A DNA stretch of 64,000 nucleotides, from contig CM119371.1 in the NCBI GenBank assembly GCA_051294905.1, positions 21,392,001-21,456,000 on the forward strand, read 5' to 3'. The stretch comes from Botryllus schlosseri. Lineage: Eukaryota. Positions 23,190-36,219 of the stretch are shown in pieces; positions within the stretch are counted from its first letter, which is position 1, and every line of letters starts with the position of its first letter. The position numbers and the translations under genes are program-made. The notes beneath the pieces were generated by a model. That model had not been told where the DNA came from. It did not search any database and was given only the letters and a program-made list of their open reading frames with translations.

Positions 23190-24184
23190 TAATGTTGGGA
23201 TGACTCGAGTCATGACTTTACTCGAATCAGACTCGAGTCACATTTTTCGAGTGACTTGACTTGACTCGAGTCACTTTGCTAAAATGACTTGACTTGACTT
23301 GACTTGGCGTAGCAGAAATTTGGATTGACTCGTGACTCGGAGCAAAATTCACAAGTCAATTTTAAGTCATTAAGTAATTGGTGTCGATAAAAATCACTGT
23401 GTCTTCCATATGTTCGGATTGTTCGCAAAACGCTGGTGTAACCCGTGAAAGCGAACAATCATTCAATGATCATGTGTTTCACTAATGAATGTAAACATTC
23501 GATAGTTTCACTGAGCCTCCATTGTTCTCTTACAAATAAATCGACCACAAACGAAGTGATCGAAACTTACAGCTCACGTTGTCGTAAACCAATGGTAAAG
23601 TAATTTATTAGCTAGATATCCATTTCTGTTCTCTGTTCTCGCCTTAACCAAACATCTTGTTTTATTGCAATTGAATTCGAATATGGTTTATATGCTCTTC
23701 AATCATCGGCGCAGGATCGAATTGTATCATATAACTATGTAAATGGGAAATGTGTTTCATCTTATCAATTCTTTTCTCTCTTTTGGCTGGTAACTATAAA
23801 CTGAGACTATGCAATTACTTACGTAGTTGAACAGTTCTACGTATATTCGAGCAATACAGCGCCTTCTTGCGTGTATATTTAACTCTAAATTTGATCATCC
23901 GTTCCGAATCAATGACCACGCAATCTGTATTTCAGACAGGTAGCAAAATGCAATGACGTAATCATGCCTCATACTTCGAAAAGGCAACTTGACTTGAACT
24001 GTGACTTGACTCGTGACTTGACTTGACTTGACTCGACTTGAATCGAGTCACCTCCAAAAATCGAGTGACTTGACTTGACTCGAGTCACGTTCGAAAATCG
24101 ATTGAGTTAACTTGACTCGAGTCAAGATGTGCAATGACTCGAAATGACTCGTGACGTGAAGATAGTGAATTGATCCCAAAACTG
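23190..24184. mobile_element. hAT MITE, CAGTGTTGGGAT family (older copy)
   Basis: Degenerate TIRs TAATGTTGGGAT...ATCCCAAAACTG; perfect TSD CTACATTG; colinear with 32620-33560. Confidence 0.9.
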
Positions 24185-26359
24185 CTACATTGTGACTCCA
24201 CAGGTGCCACAACGTCTCATCACAGTCGACCGAAAAACTTTATGTATCCTACGTATAATTCGAATAAATGAATATATTTTTGGGCGAATAATATAACAAA
24301 TATGACTAAACGCTCAATAATTTTGCAATTTTTCAAGTAGTTCTATGGCCCATCTTAAAATGCTCCTGTGGCCCTCTGTTTGAAAACCCCAAGTCTAGAC
24401 CTAATTACGTTCTTTTAAAATCCAGTATTTTGTATAATTATGTCACAATCAGGGCTTTGGAGCAGCCAGAAATTTAAACTGCTCCAGCTCCGGCACCGGA
24501 GCTCTCTTCTATCATACATTAGCTCCGGCTCCAGCTTCGGAGCCGCATTATTACCACTGCTCCGGCTCCAGCTCCGGCTCCGGCTCTGAAATTATCGAAT
24601 AGGCCTATCTATATCAGGGGTTGTCAACCCGCGGGCCAAATCTGGCCCGCCAGCGGTTTTGCGTGGCCCGCGAGGTAATTTCCTATTATATTATCGAAAA
24701 TGAATTTCTCAGATTGTGAAATCGCTAGGCCAACCAAAATTCCAAATCTGGCTGCGACACTTGGGATGTTGATGACCAAAATATCAGTTCCAACGCATTG
24801 GCAGATCCAGGGTCCAATCACATTTTCAGAAAATCGTCGTACATTACAATAAACTCAAATAGTAGCGAAATTTTTCTTCATGCTTCGCGTGTTTTAAGGG
24901 TGGAGGCCAAAAATATAGATCAAATAATAGATCTGGCGATTTTGCACGTTGCTGGATTTTCTGCGGACCAGAAAGGTAGATTAGTAAGATTCTGCCACAA
25001 CCGATTGAGTATAGACTGCTGCTTCTTGATCCTGGTCGCTACCAGGATTAAAGTCTCGATTAAGGTACACAAGCATATAAATTTGGCGAGGTTTGTAATA
25101 GTTAGGACATTGTAGATTGGAATTGCTTATCTGAGGTTCGTTATAAAGATAGTGAAGATTGCATGTTGACGATATTTTGTTACCGGTACTCAATTGTGCT
25201 TCTCCTTATTGACTGATGATCATGTTATTACAGAATGTATAATGATAATGATAATTGCATACAAACTATGTAATAAATGAGTTCAGCCGTTCTCTTGCAT
25301 TGGATACAATCAACCAAGCCGTGAAATGCTACATCGCCAAACATGGCAAAAGAACAGCAGAACAGTAATTGAAGGTTGCTTCAAAACAAGAGAAAGTGCC
25401 CAAACTGAAAATGCCAGTTGAAGCCTTCAGAACATCAATTGGAAGAGTGACTGAAGATATGGTATCTGACCCGGTGATGGTGCTATTTATTTCAAGGTAA
25501 ATTTGTAGACATTGATTATATCCATAATGCAGCGCATATCAGTAAATTAATGGTTATAGCTGTCATACCAGCATAGGATCAGCCACTTGAACATCATTTT
25601 AAAAGTGATTCCACCGTATTGTCTGTAGTTACTGCAGAAAATCAATCATGTAAGTTATATTGCGAGAGAGTAATGAGAACTTGTTCGATATATTGACCGC
25701 ATTGAGAAGTGTTCCCCATGATGATGATCGGTTCGTGTCAGAGGCAACTCTTCTCGTTATTTTCATCACTACTTTTTGCTAACATATCAATTGTACGAGT
25801 GTAGATGTATATTATATCGAATTCTTTTCCAGTGGTGTATTGAAGGGAATGCATTCACGATATCAAACGTTTTTGTCATGAACATTCAGCGATTTTATAA
25901 TGAGATTTTTTGCTAGTCGCCAAATGATCGGTTTCAGTATTTGCCACCATACTAGCAAATATGCATGTGCATTGTGCATGTGTAAACATACGTATAGCCT
26001 CAAATCCTACTGGAACATCCACATGTTTTCCAGAAACAAGCTACATGGAATCGCAGTCAACATGCGTGACATAGACAAGTGATCTGCCGATCTGCCACCT
26101 GGTATGTAGCTTAAACTCATTTGAATTTCATGTCGGGTTGATATTTCAAAATATACAATCTTGCAGTTTGGCAAACTTTTGCTCCACTGCCCCAACTATT
26201 GTTATGTAAAAAATTAGCACATTGTACTGAGATTGCTAGTGAAGTGTATCTGCGAACGATAGAGTTGGAAATGGTGTTTGACTGCTTGAAAGATTGCTGA
26301 TTACCAGTGCAATGCACATAGTTACAATCCTGTAACAATTGATATAAGATGGTATACAA

Positions 26360-27093
26360 TGGAGCCTGACCGATTATATCGCTTTGCCGATAATATATAC
26401 TCGATATCACTCTTTGAAAGAATTATTGGTATCGGCCATTGAAAATGAATATATATGGGCAGTTTTCGTGAGGTCAAAGCATGGTGATAGGAAGTCCATA
26501 AACTATAATCTTTGACCACTAGACTGAGAATATTGATATATTTTGAATATATTACACTTTACAGGTGTCCTGATACAGCCTTTCTAGTTTATTTCCTGTC
26601 CAAGTATAGCATTGGCTGTAAAGCGGATCAAATAGATGCCCTGAAGGTTTTCAAATGCACATTTTAAGGTATTCCACACAATTTGAATATAGGCTATAGT
26701 GCAGTGGTTGTCAACCTTTTTTGAGACACGCCCCTCTTTATGATAGTGAAAAATTTCGCGCCCCCAAACCCCCCCCCCCTTATCGTCATATCACAAAATC
26801 CAACCAGGATGCTAGCAACCCCAACAGATTGTTTGATGGCATGGAAGGTTATGACTGTTGAAGAGAGTAATCGAAAATATGAAATTCGGTCTATATATGG
26901 AGAAACACGTGTGAATTTGGGGTAAATCGCGCACAGCGCAAAAAAATTTCAGTTGAGCGTTTCTTCGTGCCCCCCTTCAGATGCCTTCACGCCCCCCCAG
27001 GTTGAGAACCACTGCTATAGTGGTTATCGGTGAAGGGGTTAGATATTGGTTTTATCGGTATCGGCCCAAAACTCCAATATCAGTCGGCCTCTA
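26360..27093. mobile_element. hAT MITE with ATCGG subterminal repeats
   Basis: Degenerate TIRs TGGAGCCTGACCGAT / ATCAGTCGGCCTCTA; TSD GTATACAA/GTATACAT; related to 34957-36219. Confidence 0.75.
26702..27014. mobile_element. hAT (Buster-like) MITE nested in 26360-27093
   Basis: TIRs CAGTGGTTGTCAACCT...AGGTTGAGAACCACTG; perfect TSD CTATAGTG. Confidence 0.9.
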
Positions 27094-29190: not shown

Positions 29191-29396
29191 AAAATATACA
29201 ACAGTACCAGTTTGCAGTGCCGTCTTTAGAACTTATACCTGTGAATAAACTACAGAGTAATATGCATTAAAGCTGCAAAGTGGCTTCAAATCAATTTCAT
29301 AAGTCTACCAGGAAACGACGGCATTCATAACACATGGCCAAAATCAACAACATTTCCAATCAGCATTGGCATTGAAGCAATATTTACTACGAAGTC

Positions 29397-29561
29397 TGTA
29401 CTGAAAACGTACTACGACCTCAACGCAAGTTTGGTTTTTATTAACTAAATGAAGACTCGAGCAACTAAACGCGGTACATAAAACACTCAATATATAAGGT
29501 AGGGTAAGATGCGGGTAATCAACACGATTGGTGAGATCACGAAGAAACAATAATCACCACA
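29397..29561 (-). repeat. 3' LTR (165 bp)
   Basis: Reads TGTGGTG...CAGTACA on the minus strand; contains TATATA and AATAAA; identical by eye to the 5' LTR once the SINE is removed. Confidence 0.95.
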
Positions 29562-29574
29562 ATCACCCCTCCTT
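29562..29574 (-). other. polypurine tract
   Basis: Minus strand AAGGAGGGGTGAT immediately precedes the 3' LTR. Confidence 0.85.
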
Positions 29575-29641: not shown

Positions 29642-32619
29642 TTAGGCCCAATCTCCGTATCTATCAGGAGGCCGACGGATGCGAGTAGATCGACGGAGAG
29701 ATGTTGCAGGCATCGGACTGCCATCGACGTCGTCTGAGCGATCTACGTGAGAATCGGTGTTCGTGCGCTCCTTCTCAACTGACCGAATCGATTCTTCAAC
29801 CACTTGTTCAGGTTCACGCTCCGGAATCTCCATATCTTCCTCAGTTTCGGACTTTGAACGCAGGGATTCTGTTCGTTCACGAGGAGGACACGGAGCAAGG
29901 TCTTTCACAGATACCGTACTTTCACGACCGTCTCGGCGCTTTACAAGAGCATACTTTGGATTTACTTCAATGAGTTCGACATATTCGCAGAGAGGATCGC
30001 TTTTATTTCGGACGAATTTCCTCAGGAGCGCATCTTTGCTAGATATCATCCAATCTGGAATAGATTGACCGTGCATCGATCGACGACAAAATGAAAAGAA
30101 ACGTTCATGTGGAGTGACTCCGGTGGCAGTACATAATAATGACCTTATAGAGTGTAAGGCGTCTGCTAACACCGCTTCCCAAGCGCTCTCTGGCAATTTG
30201 TGAGATGCGAGTAAAAGTTTAATTGACCTCCATATCGTCTGATTAGCCCGCTCACATTGACTGTTACCCGTAGGGTGATAGGGAGTGGTACGACTGGTCG
30301 CAACACCCTTTCGGATCAAAAACTCGTGGACATCTTTAGAGAGAAAAGACTTTCCCCTGTCACTATGTACATAGCCAGGTAATCCAAACAAAGCGAACAA
30401 TGACGATAAACAGCTAATAACAGTCTGCGACGTCATATCGGCGCATGGGAAGACGAAAGGAAAACGACTGAATTCGTCGATTACAACAAGCAAGTAAGGT
30501 CGCTTTCCAGCGACTGGTCCCTTGAAATCCATACTCACGCGATCCCATGCCCTAATAGCTTTGACGAGAGTATAAGCTTCTGGTCTGAAAAATCGAGGTT
30601 TAATTTCAGCACATTCTGGGCAATCTCGGCACTCCTTCTTTATTTCTTCTGTGGAAAAAGGTAAACATTTAGCTCGAACGAAGTGCATCATCCGTCGCAC
30701 TCCTGGGTGCGACAGTGTTACGTGAATATTACGTAAGCTCGATCCTGTAAAGGCACAAACTCTCGACATCGAATCGGCGGCTACGTTGTCTTTACCTGGT
30801 CGATGTTTGATGCGGTATTTGAATGCACTTAATTCGAGTTTCCACAAGGACAATTTTGTATTCTTTATCTTACTGCGATGAGATTTCGCGAATATGAAGG
30901 ACAGTGCCTTTTGATCCGTGATCAAGGTAAACGGTTTTATATGAAGTAGATAGCCCCACTTACGTACTGCCTCAATAATGGCAGCTGCTTCTTTTTCTAC
31001 GGCAGCGTACCTCTTCTCATGCTTGTTCAGCGTTCTGTGCGCAAACGCTACCGGCCTACCTCTTTGGCTGAGTATTGCAGCAATGGCGTATTCAGAAGCA
31101 TCACACTCGATGGTAAATTCTTCATCCTCCAGAATACAGCCGAGACTTGACCGTAGGAGATCGTTCTTCAATTGCCGAAATGCCATCAAGGCTTCGCTGC
31201 TTAAGGGAAATGTCAAATCGTTGTTACATAGCGGACCAATTTTACCGGAAAAATTCGATATCCACTTCGAATAGTAAGAAAACATTCCCAGACAACGTTT
31301 CAAACTTTTTCCGTCAGAAGGCGCAGGTAAGTCAACTAGAGGCTTCAGATGAGCAGGATCGGGCTTTATGGAGTCGTGAGCGACGAGGTGTCCCAAAATG
31401 GACAATTCCTTGACACAGAACTTGCACTTGTTAACATTCAGAGTTAGATCACAAACCTTCGCGGCGGTTATAAAAGCATGCAAACGTTCATCATGCTGTT
31501 GCTTTGTATCGCCATAAATGGTAATGTCGTCTAGATAAGCGACAGTGCCTTTCAGTCCGTTGCCTTCTATAAATCTGTCAATAAAGCGTTGAAACGCAGC
31601 AACTCCATTAGTGACTCCAAAGGGAAGCCTGCAAAATTGATATAGACGACCACAAGCTTCGAATGCAGTAAAAGGCTTATCATTACTTCCAAGAGGTACC
31701 TGATGGTAAGCGGACTTCAAATCTATCGCACTGTACCATTTACCTCGAGCTACTTCATTTACGACGTTTTCAATCTTCGGAAGCGGATACGCATCTAGCG
31801 GAGTATAGCGGTTGATTGTTTGAGAGTAATCAACGACCAATCTCTTCTTGTGTCTGGAGTCCTTTACCACCAATACCTGAGCTCTCCACGGAGACGAGGA
31901 AGGTTCAATCACCCCAGAATCCAGAAGTTTTGAGACTTCGTCACGTATAAACACCTTGTCATCATTACTGTAGTTTTTGGACTTGGTAGCCAAGGGCTGC
32001 ACGTTCCCATCTACAAACCGAAAAATACACGGCGTCTCATCCACTTTAGCAGCTATCACATTACAGGCATCAGTTGCTGCTGCTGCTGTATCAGCGCTCC
32101 CGTCAGCGCTTTCATTTGTAACCAGCCCATCGCCTCCGCCACTTGCTCTGCCGCTGTTGATGGTTAGATCTCCATCGCCACTGAATTCAAAAACAACTCT
32201 TTTATGCTTTTCGAAGAAATTATGGCCTAGAACCAAATCGCAACAAAGATCGTCAAGAACGCCGAACCGAATAGATTTATATATTCGATTACCCAAATCC
32301 ACAGGAACACAAACGAAACCGTTGACTTCGGCGGCGAATTGTCCTGAAGCGAGTTTGATCATGGTTTGCAGACCTCTGCCTTTCAACCCAAGCGAAGCGG
32401 CTACTTTAGAATCCATGTAATTTTCCCAAGCTCCGGAATCCAGTAAGGCACGCAACTTTGCTTTACGAATGTAAGCTGGCACAGTAGTGTTGGACAGCGA
32501 GGAACAGCCATTAGATGCAAGAATGGACGAGATTCGAGGTTCAGTGACAGACGCAGCTGTTTTCACTACTTGGGATCGACACATTTTACTGAAATGTCCT
32601 TGCTTTTGGCACTTGAAAC
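29642..32619 (-). CDS. pol: gag C-terminus plus pol polyprotein (protease, RT, RNase H, integrase)
   Basis: 980-aa ORF 29642-32584: protease LLDSGA; RT IDLKSAYHQ, LPFG, YLDD; RNase H ECDAS/EKE/TDQ/ADSMSR; integrase H..H..CPEC, MDFKG, HSDRG, QCER. The frame stays open up to the MITE junction. No chromodomain seen. Confidence 0.97.
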
Positions 32620-33560
32620 CAGTGTTGGGATGACTCGAGTCATGACTTGACTCGAGTCAGACTCGAGTCACCTTTTTTGAATGACTTTACTTGACTCGAG
32701 TCACTTTGCTAAAATGACTTGACTTGACTTGACTCGGCGTATCAGAAATATGGATTGACTCGTGACTCGGAGCAAAATTCACGAGTCAATTTCAAGTCAT
32801 CAAGTAATCGATGTCGATAAAAATCAATGGATCTTGCATATGTTCGGATTGTTCGCGAAACGCTGGTAAAACCCGCGAGAGCGACCAATCATTTAATGAT
32901 CGTGCGTTTTACTGAGCCTCCATTGTTCCCTCACAAATAAATTGACCGCAAACGAAGTGATCGAAGAATATAGCTCACGTTGTCGTAAACTAGTATAAGC
33001 TAGGACAGTAAAGTAATTAATCTCTGGTTTTACGTTGACTAAACCTCTTGTTTTATTGAAATTGAATTCGAATATAGTTTATATAGTCCTCAACCATTGG
33101 CGCAGGCTCGAATTGTATCAGATCGATTTGTAAATGGGTTATGTATTTCATCCTATCAATTCGTATCTATTATCTATTTTGGCTGGAAACTATATATTGT
33201 GGTTTAGCAGTTCTACGTATATGTGAGCGATACAGCGCCTTCTTGCGTGTATATTTAACTCTATGTTCGTTCATCGGTTCAAAATCAATAACCACTCAAT
33301 CTGTATTTCAGACAGATAGCAAAATGCAATAACGTTGTCATGCCCCAGACTTCGAAAAGGCAACTTGACTTGAATTGTGACTTGACTCGTGACTTGACTT
33401 GACTTGACTCGACTTGACTCGAGTCACCTCCAAAAATCGAGTGACTTGACTTGACTCGAGTCACCTTTGAAAATCGATTGACTTGACTTGACTCGAGTCA
33501 AAATGGGCAATGACTCGAAATGACTCGTGACTTTAAGGTAGTGACTTGATCCCAACACTG
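32620..33560. mobile_element. 941-bp hAT MITE inserted in the gag zinc knuckle
   Basis: Perfect TIRs CAGTGTTGGGAT...ATCCCAACACTG; perfect TSD CTTGAAAC (32612-32619, 33561-33568); GACTT/GACTCGAGTC arrays. Confidence 0.97.
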
Positions 33561-34397
33561 CTTGAAACACCTCACGTACCGAGCAGGGCATAGGGCACGG
33601 TCTAAAACGTGACTGTTACCACAAAATATACACTTCGACGATTGACGACGGACTACCCCGACTTCACTTACGCCATTATTCGAAGATGTACAATCCGTGC
33701 GAGCCACGCTATTCACATTAGCGATCTCGCTCGCATCATTATTCGCAGCAATGTGTGCGGATGCGCAATCTATGCGAGCCATGCTACTCACAGTAGCGGT
33801 GGTCTCGTAGGAACGAGAGAAGCACTCTGCTTTCTCCATAGTGTCTGCAACTTGAAGCGCTTTATCCAAAGATAGTTCCTCGTGTTCCAGAAGACGGAGA
33901 CGTATATTTGCTGATCGCAATCCAGAAATGAACGCATCGCGTACAGATTCTTCCAAATGCGTTTCTGCGGTAACCGACTTGAACTCGCATTTCTTGCCCA
34001 ATGTTAACAATTCTTGTGCAAATTCAGATACGCTCTCACTCGTCATTTGTTTTCTGGCCGAGAGGTTATGACGAGCGTAAATAGTATTGTTCTTCTTGAC
34101 ATACATCTTCTTCAATTTCTCCATTGCTTCAAGGTAGTTCTCCTTATCTTCGATATACGAAAATATCTCAGCAGACATGTATCCACCCATAATAGCGATC
34201 TTATTGATGGCGGAAAGTGCGGGTGAATCCGACCCACTCCCAGACGATGCGGAGCCGGCATTTCTTGATTGCTCAACGGCTTCAATATAGCTCTCCAACA
34301 TACGCTTCCAATGGTTGAAAACCTTCTGCGAATCCACTGCACGTGGTAACACCTCCAACACTGGTACGCGGATGAGCTTCTCGTTGTAAGCAGCCAT
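33561..34397 (-). CDS. gag: gag (capsid-like region plus zinc knuckles), interrupted by the MITE
   Basis: RKQMTSESVSEFAQELLTLGKKCEF...VRDAFISGLRS...RLLE; first knuckle CIFCGNSHVLDRALC; second knuckle begins CFK at the MITE junction. Confidence 0.92.
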
Positions 34398-34441
34398 GTC
34401 TTTTACGGAAAAGACGACAACGTTCGTTTAGTTAATAAAAT

Positions 34442-34897
34442 TGTACTGAAAACGTACTACGACCTCAACGCAAGTTTGGTTTTTATTAACTAAATGAAGA
34501 CTCGAGCAACTAAACGCGGTACATAAAACACTCAATATATAAGGTAGGGTAAGATGCGGGTTTGTTTGTTTTTTGGGTATTCATGGTGTTTATCGACTAC
34601 TATGGTCATTTACACCAGGCCGATATTCTTCTTGTTTTTCCGTAACTGCCGACTTATAGCACGGCCCACCTCTAGGCTTTTTGTAAGACACCGCTGACGC
34701 GGATGAGGTGGCGAGGAGGAGCCTAGGTAAACCTCCAACACTTAGATATCGGAATTCGGAAGTCGACCTCGGTCGGACTCGAACCCGCACCCATTGGTGT
34801 TGCAGCCGCGGATTATACCACTGCGCTATCTCGCCACATGTAAGATGCGGGTAATCAACACGATTGGTGAGATCACGAAGAAACAATAATCACCACA
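34442..34897 (-). repeat. 5' LTR, interrupted by a SINE
   Basis: 456 bp = 165-bp LTR + 278-bp SINE + 13-bp TSD. Confidence 0.95.
34562..34839 (-). mobile_element. full-length tRNA-derived SINE (278 bp)
   Basis: Minus strand begins ATGTGGCGAGATAGCGCAGTGG (A box) ... GGTTCGAGTCC (B box) and ends in an A-rich tail CCCAAAAAACAAACAA; 13-bp TSD GTAAGATGCGGGT (34549-34561, 34840-34852). Confidence 0.93.
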
Positions 34898-34956
34898 AAG
34901 TCGATGGGTTGACATGGCAACCTTCCACGGATCACTACATTTTGCGTCATTTTGAC

Positions 34957-36219
34957 TAGAGCCCGACCGATTATCGGCTCGCCGGTAATATCGAGTCGAT
35001 ATCACGCTTGGAAAGAAATATCGGTATCGGCCATCGAAGGTAAAAAGATATCGGCCATATTCGTGACGTCACAACATGGTGGCAGGGAGTCAGAGAAATC
35101 GATAGAAGACGCGAGGACGGTAAATTACAAAAATAAATGGCCAAGCTGCATATAGTGCATACTGCATACAGGGCAGTAGGCGTGCCTATATGAAAAATAT
35201 TATAGATGACTAACCACCGCTATGCTCCACTGACTTCGTGGGAATCCCCCTTCAGTGATCGATTACGTAAGACAGAGAGCAGCTGGATGGATAGTTGTCT
35301 GCGGAAGATTTCAATCAGTAAGAGAAATGAGAACTCCAATCATGCTGGACTGACCATCGAAATGACAGAGAAAATCGTCGCGTCGAAACATTTCTCGGTT
35401 CGGTACCAACAGAGCTAATTATACCATTAATGTATGAAGTCTGACTGAGGCCTGCGGCTGCGGGGTTACCATGATGGGAAATATGCGAGCATAGAGGGCA
35501 AGAAAATCAAGCAAACGTGGAGTAAAGCCAATAATTGATATGAACATTTTTGATTCCATGATGACATTGGCCAATTCTGACAAAAGAGCGTAAAATAGTG
35601 ATCGATTGATTGTTGAAATGCTGGTCATGGTCAAGGCCCAAGGGGGATGGGTGGAGCAGTTGCAGACGTGGACAATTTGAGTTGTTTTGCACATTCTCTT
35701 CAGCTATTTGTTGATGTGCTGAAAGCTCCAGGTGCACTGCCAGAACAATATCGATATAATAATCAATATTTGGTGAAACCATTGAAGGAAAGATCCCCTG
35801 CAAGGGAGTGGTGAAACCGAAATGAAGAAAGATTTCCAATTCTTGCTGTGCCACTAACTATGGTACCAAGTGAAAGACTGCTCACTGTGTTTAGTACTAT
35901 ATACATCATCTATGGAAGACCACAGAAGTTCACTATTTGGAGAAAGGGCCAAGAAATTGTGCTTCATGAACTGTAATCTGCAACTGCTGGATTGGTGCTT
36001 TTGATATATTTTTATAGTTCCTTGATCATTTATTTCATGTTCAAGCATATCAATGGCTGTGAAGTTGTTAAAAGAAATGCTCTGAGGTGTTAGATATGGG
36101 CCTGGAGCTAGATTCCATATCTTTTGAATATCGGCTGAATATATCGGGGTTATCGGTGGAGGTACTGGATATCGGTCTTATCGGTATCGGCTCAGAAATC
36201 CAATATCGGTCGGGCTCTA
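34957..36219 (+). mobile_element. hAT internal-deletion derivative with transposase C-terminal remnant
   Basis: Perfect TIRs TAGAGCCCGACCGAT...ATCGGTCGGGCTCTA; perfect TSD ATTTTGAC. ~35790-35995 encodes, with frameshifts, DPLQ..NEERFPILA..PLTMVPSERL..DHRSSLFGERAKKLCFMNCNL, a hAT dimerization domain. Confidence 0.9.

Follow-up and report, generated by a model that had tools for sequence, protein, structure and literature searches.

How does a Ty3/gypsy retrotransposon begin reverse transcription when the TGG that opens a tRNA primer-binding site is missing behind its 5′ LTR? The question is raised by an element on the minus strand of the window, by which we mean the whole 64-kb stretch of DNA analyzed here, and the first-pass annotation of this DNA had offered an answer in proposing that the element primes from a segment of its own LTR. 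To our knowledge, self-priming of reverse transcription has been demonstrated only for the Tf1-type elements of fission yeast, and the predictions of self-priming known to us concern mainly the chromovirus relatives of those elements and one plant copia lineage. Comparison of the window copy with its own family, with other families in the same genome and with relatives in metagenome contigs reveals a conserved and compensated pairing, from which we judge it likely that a large, recently active Ty3/gypsy lineage, lacking both a chromodomain and a tRNA primer-binding site, primes its minus-strand DNA with its own RNA, as Tf1 does.

The element is an LTR retrotransposon with the domain order PR-RT-RNase H-IN and LTRs of the form TG...CA; together with a short target duplication and a polypurine tract, both present, these features place it in the Ty3/gypsy group (Metaviridae). 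Its parts are collected in Table 1. A first look took the LTR to be a 120-nt repeat, which was wrong: the true LTR is 165 nt long, and a SINE interrupts its 5′ copy (34897-34442) past the first 58 nt, so that a repeat search yields only the 120 nt that are 100% identical. The SINE is outside the priming device, and neither ARAGORN, run over the whole window, nor Rfam, run over 34300-34950, returned a hit that would name it. The gag region is also interrupted, within its second zinc knuckle, by a 941-bp DNA transposon. With a SINE-split 5′ LTR and a transposon-split gag the window copy is therefore dead; its LTRs are nonetheless identical.

Table 1. Positions in the window of the retrotransposon, its candidate priming segments and the sequences inserted into it.
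Feature	Positions	Strand	Basis
Target-site duplication GACTT, 5′ side	34898..34902	(-)	Direct reading; same 5 nt at 29392-29396
5′ LTR, first 58 nt (TGTGGTG...CATCTTAC), upstream of SINE	34840..34897	(-)	Matches start of 3′ LTR by eye
tRNA-like SINE, ~278 bp, with A-rich tail, inside 5′ LTR; 12-13-nt duplication (A)CCCGCATCTTAC	34562..34839	(-)	Comparison with intact 3′ LTR
5′ LTR, last 120 nt, with TATA-like box, arm and AATAAA; ends ...GTACA	34442..34561	(-)	100% identity to 29397-29516
TATA-like box TATATAT	34536..34542	(-)	Motif match
Second, 9-nt complement CGTTTAGTT, to 34425-34433	34508..34516	(-)	
LTR arm TTCATTTAGTTAATAAAA, core 34481-34494, candidate self-primer; AATAAA at 34482-34487; followed by ACC	34481..34498	(-)	
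Spacer, single A, between LTR end and primer site	34441	(-)	
Primer-binding position TTTTATTAACTAAACGAA, complementary to arm (14 perfect, 17/18)	34423..34440	(-)	
gag, from ATG to insertion	33561..34397	(-)	
Non-autonomous DNA transposon, 941 bp; terminal inverted repeats CAGTGTTGGGAT, 8-bp duplication GTTTCAAG	32620..33560	(-)	
Remaining gag-pol: protease, reverse transcriptase, RNase H, integrase; chromodomain absent	29642..32619	(-)	
Polypurine tract AAGGAGGGG(TGAT), adjoining 3′ LTR	29562..29574	(-)	
3′ LTR, intact, 165 nt, TGTGGTG...GTACA	29397..29561	(-)	
Target-site duplication GACTT, 3′ side	29392..29396	(-)	

On the element strand the 5′ LTR ends in ...CAGTACA at 34442 and is followed by a single A (34441) and then directly by TTTTATTAACTAAACGAA (34440-34423), with no TGG. 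The first 14 nt of this stretch, which we call the site (34440-34427, TTTTATTAACTAAA), are the perfect reverse complement of an LTR segment, the arm (34494-34481, TTTAGTTAATAAAA), and on extension 17 of 18 positions pair (34498-34481 with 34440-34423), the exception being an A.C mismatch at 34426. The polyadenylation signal AATAAA (34487-34482) overlaps the arm and lies inside it, and a TATA box, TATATAT, is found at 34542-34536; in all of these points the sequence agrees with what the first-pass annotation had described. Mononucleotide shuffling of LTR and site, repeated 20,000 times, never gave a complement of 14 nt, the best being 13 nt, once. The predicted RNA fold of 34512-34415 includes the arm-site helix at -18.6 kcal/mol (z = -1.14, with 24 of 200 shuffles equally stable); the helix is AU-rich, and its stability is ordinary. 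A second complement of 9 nt, also pointed out in the annotation (34516-34508 against 34433-34425), is present as described, and proved specific to the window's family: it shortens to 7 nt in the sister copy L050, and the other families have nothing that corresponds to it. It was rejected as a functional primer because it is not conserved, and is probably incidental.

The LTR-leader stretch of the window copy has at least 41 matches in the 495-Mb genome from which the window comes. Among 22 copies that carry the site, position 34426 is C in 17 (17 of 18 positions paired) and T in 5 (18 of 18); the prevalence of the A.C mismatch implies that pairing past 14 nt is not required. We considered the recurrent C and T at this position as proof of primer copying and rejected it, because the position lies inside a CpG. 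The substitutions among these copies are uncompensated and resemble neutral decay, and one old copy, L017, has four uncompensated mismatches. A subfamily of three copies (L019, L024 and L026) has lost 27 nt of leader directly after a 17-nt site, which is retained and abuts the gag ATG region, with about 19 nt left from the LTR to the gag ATG.

Other families were sought in the same genome with 600 amino acids of the RT-RNase H-IN region. We scored 73 of some 2,390 candidates, many of which are 58-68% identical and have open frames of 1200-1270 amino acids, and cut out 20 loci. Fourteen have clean LTR pairs, mostly 100% identical. The remaining six were left out: no LTR pair was found in L031 and L048, L032 has 82%-identical repeats without LTR ends, L043 has a truncated 3′ LTR, L046 carries a direct repeat of 1084 nt, and in L049 an internal deletion takes away the site. 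Twelve further 5′ regions and two 3′ LTRs were added later, with L055 left out as degenerate. The resulting 12 distinct arm/site pairs represent 12 families or subfamilies, in which pol is 55-68% identical to that of the window's family, the gag-pol frames span 1197-1268 amino acids and the LTR pairs are mostly 100% identical. G-rich tracts resembling the window's polypurine tract precede the 3′ LTR in other families as well.

All 12 families have a perfect complement of 12-18 nt beginning 1-2 nt past the LTR, a length reached by at most one of 2000 shuffles (0-1 per family). The spacer is A in 11 of them and GT in L051, and the paired LTR segment ends 34-69 nt before the LTR end. For 11 of the 12 the family's own LTR is strictly the longest match to the site, with one tie, and the site's fit to the LTR is equalled by none of 1487 internal windows of 25 nt. 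The minimum-energy fold holds the arm-site helix in every family. L053 has a single mismatch. The leader from LTR to gag ATG measures only 19-53 nt, and in L047 the complement takes up 16 of its 19 nt; a leader of this size leaves no room for a further primer site.

The differences between these families are compensated, so that, for instance, where the site has gone from A to C, from A to G or from T to C the arm has changed to its complement, and in L047, L051 and L052 arm and site are wholly different in sequence and yet pair. As MAFFT misaligned these three, they were compared by anchoring, and the formal count of pairs is limited to an alignment of 10 rows. In that alignment both sides have changed in 9 of 18 pairs, and 90% of cells are paired, a share that sliding the partner lowers to 34-52%. 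None of 500 shuffles scored as high on four of the five measures; the fifth, the number of further pair types, was reached by 33 of 500.

The same pairing is found in relatives from metagenome contigs, where gag alignment located 80 loci with gag 30-52% identical. Of these, 53 can be evaluated, the other 27 having a gag match that begins after residue 15 or an upstream stretch shorter than 120 nt. Counting perfect matches only, 37 of the 53 match over 10 nt or more, a result that none of 40 shuffles attains in 35 of these cases; with one mismatch allowed, the number of paired positions is 12 or more in 39 loci, 10-11 in 5 and below 10 in 9. On inspection the low-scoring loci proved to be decayed or truncated, or to have lost the site to a guessed gag start and the limits of the search window. 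The metagenome relatives provide 28 distinct arm/site pairs. At each of positions 5-12 from the junction 27-28 of the 28 are paired, by 2-4 kinds of Watson-Crick pair (3-4 kinds at six of these eight positions), and each site pairs with its own arm at a mean of 11.6 of 12 positions, against 6.6 with the arms of other families. The LTR junction here reads ...CACAA/TTTA..., the sites starting with TTTA or TTAA and not with TGG, and the arms end in ...TAAA followed by GCC or ACC, as they do in the window's genome. A scan of IMG/VR found no relatives. The named relatives in databases include "K02A2.6-like" proteins of insects (butterflies, an aphid, a psyllid and a cockroach), a mussel, Ciona and nematodes, and there is also one from an isopod.

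Pairing is thus kept, with compensatory changes, in 12 of 12 families and in 44 of the 53 evaluable metagenome relatives, and no relative combining a TGG site with absence of the complementarity was found. The covariation between the arms that the first-pass annotation had named as a check is seen both in the 10 aligned rows from the same genome and in the 28 metagenome pairs. The comparison therefore supports the self-priming reading through a pairing that is conserved and compensated, and from that pairing we infer the priming itself.

A single locus, L021 (G000 C7:25311167-25311373 and flanks), may preserve a trace of the process. It consists of a full LTR, the A and the site, to which LTR positions 1-143 are joined in reverse complement, exactly at the arm/site pairing; a 5-bp duplication, GATAT, flanks the whole structure. 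This looks like the product expected if a DNA intermediate ending in the site snapped back onto the arm, was lengthened by synthesis and went on to integrate. Read in this way, the locus shows that the pairing acted during replication; as a single case it is by itself no proof of priming.

These data suggest a model for the start of reverse transcription in the lineage. Transcription would begin in the 5′ LTR, at or upstream of the arm, and the arm in the RNA (34498-34481) would pair with the 18 nt that follow the LTR and its single A (34440-34423), leaving a loop of about 40 nt formed by the remainder of R and U5. For this step the pairing potential, the position and the conservation are established. 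We propose that the element's RNase H, by analogy with Tf1, cuts directly 3′ of the arm at the conserved ...AAA/RCC junction, and that the 3′ end of the arm is then extended over the loop, which measures 36-70 nt in other families, to give a short strong-stop DNA; this DNA would be passed on to the 3′ R at a point beyond the arm. The polypurine tract would prime the plus-strand strong-stop DNA, whose synthesis would copy the RNA primer, so that the site is rewritten from the arm in each cycle; both sides would therefore stay complementary without the need for paired mutations.

Promoter motifs bear on the first step of this model. In the window an initiator-like TTAGTT follows the TATA-like box, its A lying 31 nt past the first T of the box by motif match. 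Such a motif stands 7-16 nt upstream of the arm in 6 of the 12 families and inside the arm in 7 families, and with an initiator inside the arm the RNA would retain no more than about 11 nt of the arm; across the 12 families the promoter motifs are thus ambiguous as to where transcripts may start. The starts of metagenome contigs were considered as transcript starts and rejected, as they are LTR edges. RNA reads on L050, from one bulk run, two single-cell runs and one contig run, are too few, at a depth below 3, and mark no start or end places.

The arm also raises the question of the polyadenylation signal, since the first-pass annotation had suggested that the same hairpin masks it in the 5′ LTR. 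The arm contains AATAAA in 9 of the 12 families and a close variant in others (AGTAAA in L033, ATTAAA in L051), and of the 17 metagenome arms of full length 9 have ATTAAA or AATAAA as their end. Masking thus fits most families; it does not extend to L047 and L052, in which AATAAA lies in the loop, outside the arm, nor do the remaining metagenome arms, ending in GATAAA, GTTAAA or TTTAAA, carry the signal. We therefore consider it possible that the duplex, which would bury the 5′ poly(A) hexamer in most families, has a second role in these, though not as a general property of the lineage. The frequent hexamer lends some weight to an alternative in which the helix is purely structural, serving 5′ poly(A) occlusion, packaging, dimerization or translation control, with reverse transcription starting from some other primer. 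The downstream partner of the arm exists for the 5′ LTR only, as such a role would have it, and covariation proves pairing and not priming, so that it would arise from a structural role too. Against this stand the families and metagenome arms just named, in which the signal is outside the helix or replaced; the leader, which is too short for a second primer site and offers no TGG; the start of the site, always 1-2 nt past the LTR end, precisely where a primer must sit; and the junction of L021 at the arm/site pairing. On balance we regard a purely structural helix as unlikely.

Self-priming could also operate in trans, with an arm fragment of another RNA copy, either a co-packaged partner or a short 5′ transcript, annealing to the site. 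Complementarity and covariation would fit this arrangement equally well, and the loops between arm and site (34-76 nt in the same-genome families and the metagenome relatives) are little conserved; Tf1, however, is described as self-folding, and we think a primer supplied in trans rather improbable.

A cellular RNA, whether a tRNA fragment, a mitochondrial tRNA or another small RNA ending in ...GUUAAUAAAA, might instead be the primer, with the match to the LTR as a by-product. The core TTTTATTAAC is common to 9 of the 12 families, which such an RNA could explain, and our comparison with host tRNAs covered 20 genes of about four types only, among which matches ran to 5-8 nt at best. In all 12 families the first nucleotides behind the LTR lack a TGG with which a CCA end could pair. 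The site moreover varies between families (L033, L035, L037, L047, L051 and L052, besides the 28 metagenome pairs), each time following the LTR of its own family, so that no single cellular RNA fits all of them, and a cellular primer appears very unlikely. That the match is due to chance or is a by-product of AT-rich, low-complexity sequence is scarcely credible, since even with A+T at about 80% in both arms neither the 20,000 shuffles nor the 1487 internal windows matched it, and its position is conserved and its sequence compensated over dozens of elements.

We return to self-priming by the element's own RNA and to the place of these elements among known ones. The first-pass annotation had described the element as free of a chromodomain, and neither the window's pol nor any of five intact polyproteins gave a chromodomain hit at E <= 0.01 (0 of 6); by the one defining feature tested, the elements are therefore not members of Tf1/sushi. 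The CsRn1 and Mag clades are, like the elements studied here, metazoan Ty3/gypsy elements with short LTRs and no chromodomain. GyRex2 and Boudicca belong to the CsRn1 clade, whose gag differs from a gag with CCHC knuckles, and CCHC knuckles are found in the gag of our elements. The LTR start TGTGGTG corresponds to the CsRn1 motif TGTGGYG and not to the motifs of Mag A or Mag C (Table 3, PMC3601003), which is only a hint that may point to CsRn1 rather than Mag, the clade to which the first-pass annotation had likened the element. GyRex2 differs in its primer site, which the description of that element in PMC3587641 gives as complementary to tRNA-Trp (TGGTGACCC...) and as resembling that of Boudicca.

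The closest parallel in mechanism is Tf1, in which, according to the passages on priming in PMC7175516 and PMC4600332, the first 11 bases pair with the primer-binding site and RNase H cuts between bases 11 and 12. In the same passages Tf1, Tf2, Tj1 and Tf1/sushi elements are alike in lacking a tRNA site and in having a post-LTR sequence that complements their own LTR. The fold-back, RNase H cut and extension that we propose would be common to Tf1 and the elements here, for which they are deduced from sequence. Differences lie in the chromodomain of Tf1/sushi, which our elements lack; in the length of the complement, 11 nt as stated there for Tf1 and 12-18 nt here, where it usually contains the poly(A) hexamer; and possibly in its position, as the Tf1 complement comprises bases 1-11 of the mRNA, whereas the arm here is an internal LTR segment that may lie within the RNA and not at its very 5′ end. 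Self-priming has also been predicted in silico for plant chromoviruses of the Tcn1 clade and for the TAR lineage of Ty1/copia, in the account of primer sites in PMC6317226; like ours, these predictions draw on sequence data alone, and TAR stands outside the Ty3/gypsy chromoviruses, but they concern another clade or superfamily and plant hosts. The dictyostelid element Skipper resembles the present elements as a Ty3/gypsy element without a tRNA-type site, for which the section on its primer site in PMC5006619 reports no TGG and a polypyrimidine stretch; unlike them, it is described there as having no complementary region in its left LTR. In the full-text literature searched we found no report of self-priming in metazoan Ty3/gypsy elements without a chromodomain, and a prior description in older papers is possible.

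A second, unrelated-looking lineage of self-priming Ty3/gypsy elements, numerous in an animal genome and seemingly active there, would mean that tRNA-independent priming is far commoner than assumed or has evolved more than once. Annotation pipelines that seek tRNA-complementary sites will miss or misjudge such elements, which, if the reading is true, would also be invisible to host control acting via tRNA fragments. The conserved ...AAA/RCC junction offers a precise and testable cleavage site, and the overlap of arm and poly(A) hexamer a simple model for how an LTR element might tell its 5′ from its 3′ repeat. Tentatively, and with more doubt than confidence, we extend this to a wider proposal: that a lineage of animal Ty3/gypsy elements, ancient, widely spread and active to this day in insects and other invertebrates, replicates without host tRNA; that an internal LTR segment serves it both as self-primer and as poly(A) signal; that one RNA duplex, possible at the 5′ end only, would silence premature polyadenylation and supply the primer, the two being coupled by RNase H cleavage at ...AAA/RCC; and that this device may have arisen independently of Tf1/sushi.

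Some loci met in the survey are of interest in their own right. In L041 and L040, which belong to one family, the complement to the arm is 16 nt in one and 19 nt with one mismatch in the other, a difference that would agree with rewriting of the site from primers that vary in length. L049 (G000 C7:24773656-24779955) has 159-nt LTRs that are 100% identical and an internal deletion that starts at the LTR end and reaches the gag zinc knuckle, which leaves it with no primer site. The 1084-nt direct repeat of L046 (G000 C10:3653512-3659811) replaces the normal LTR pair, and the locus probably consists of two elements in tandem or nested. Within the window, the 941-bp DNA transposon, which from the length of its 8-bp duplication we take to be hAT-like, has 12-nt inverted ends and GAGTCAAGTCA subterminal repeats, and one of its ends occurs again at 24000-24186 (94% identity, repeat family D1). 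A 120-nt direct repeat with 78% identity is found at 26377-26496 and 34972-35091, the latter copy lying just beyond the 5′ flank of the element.
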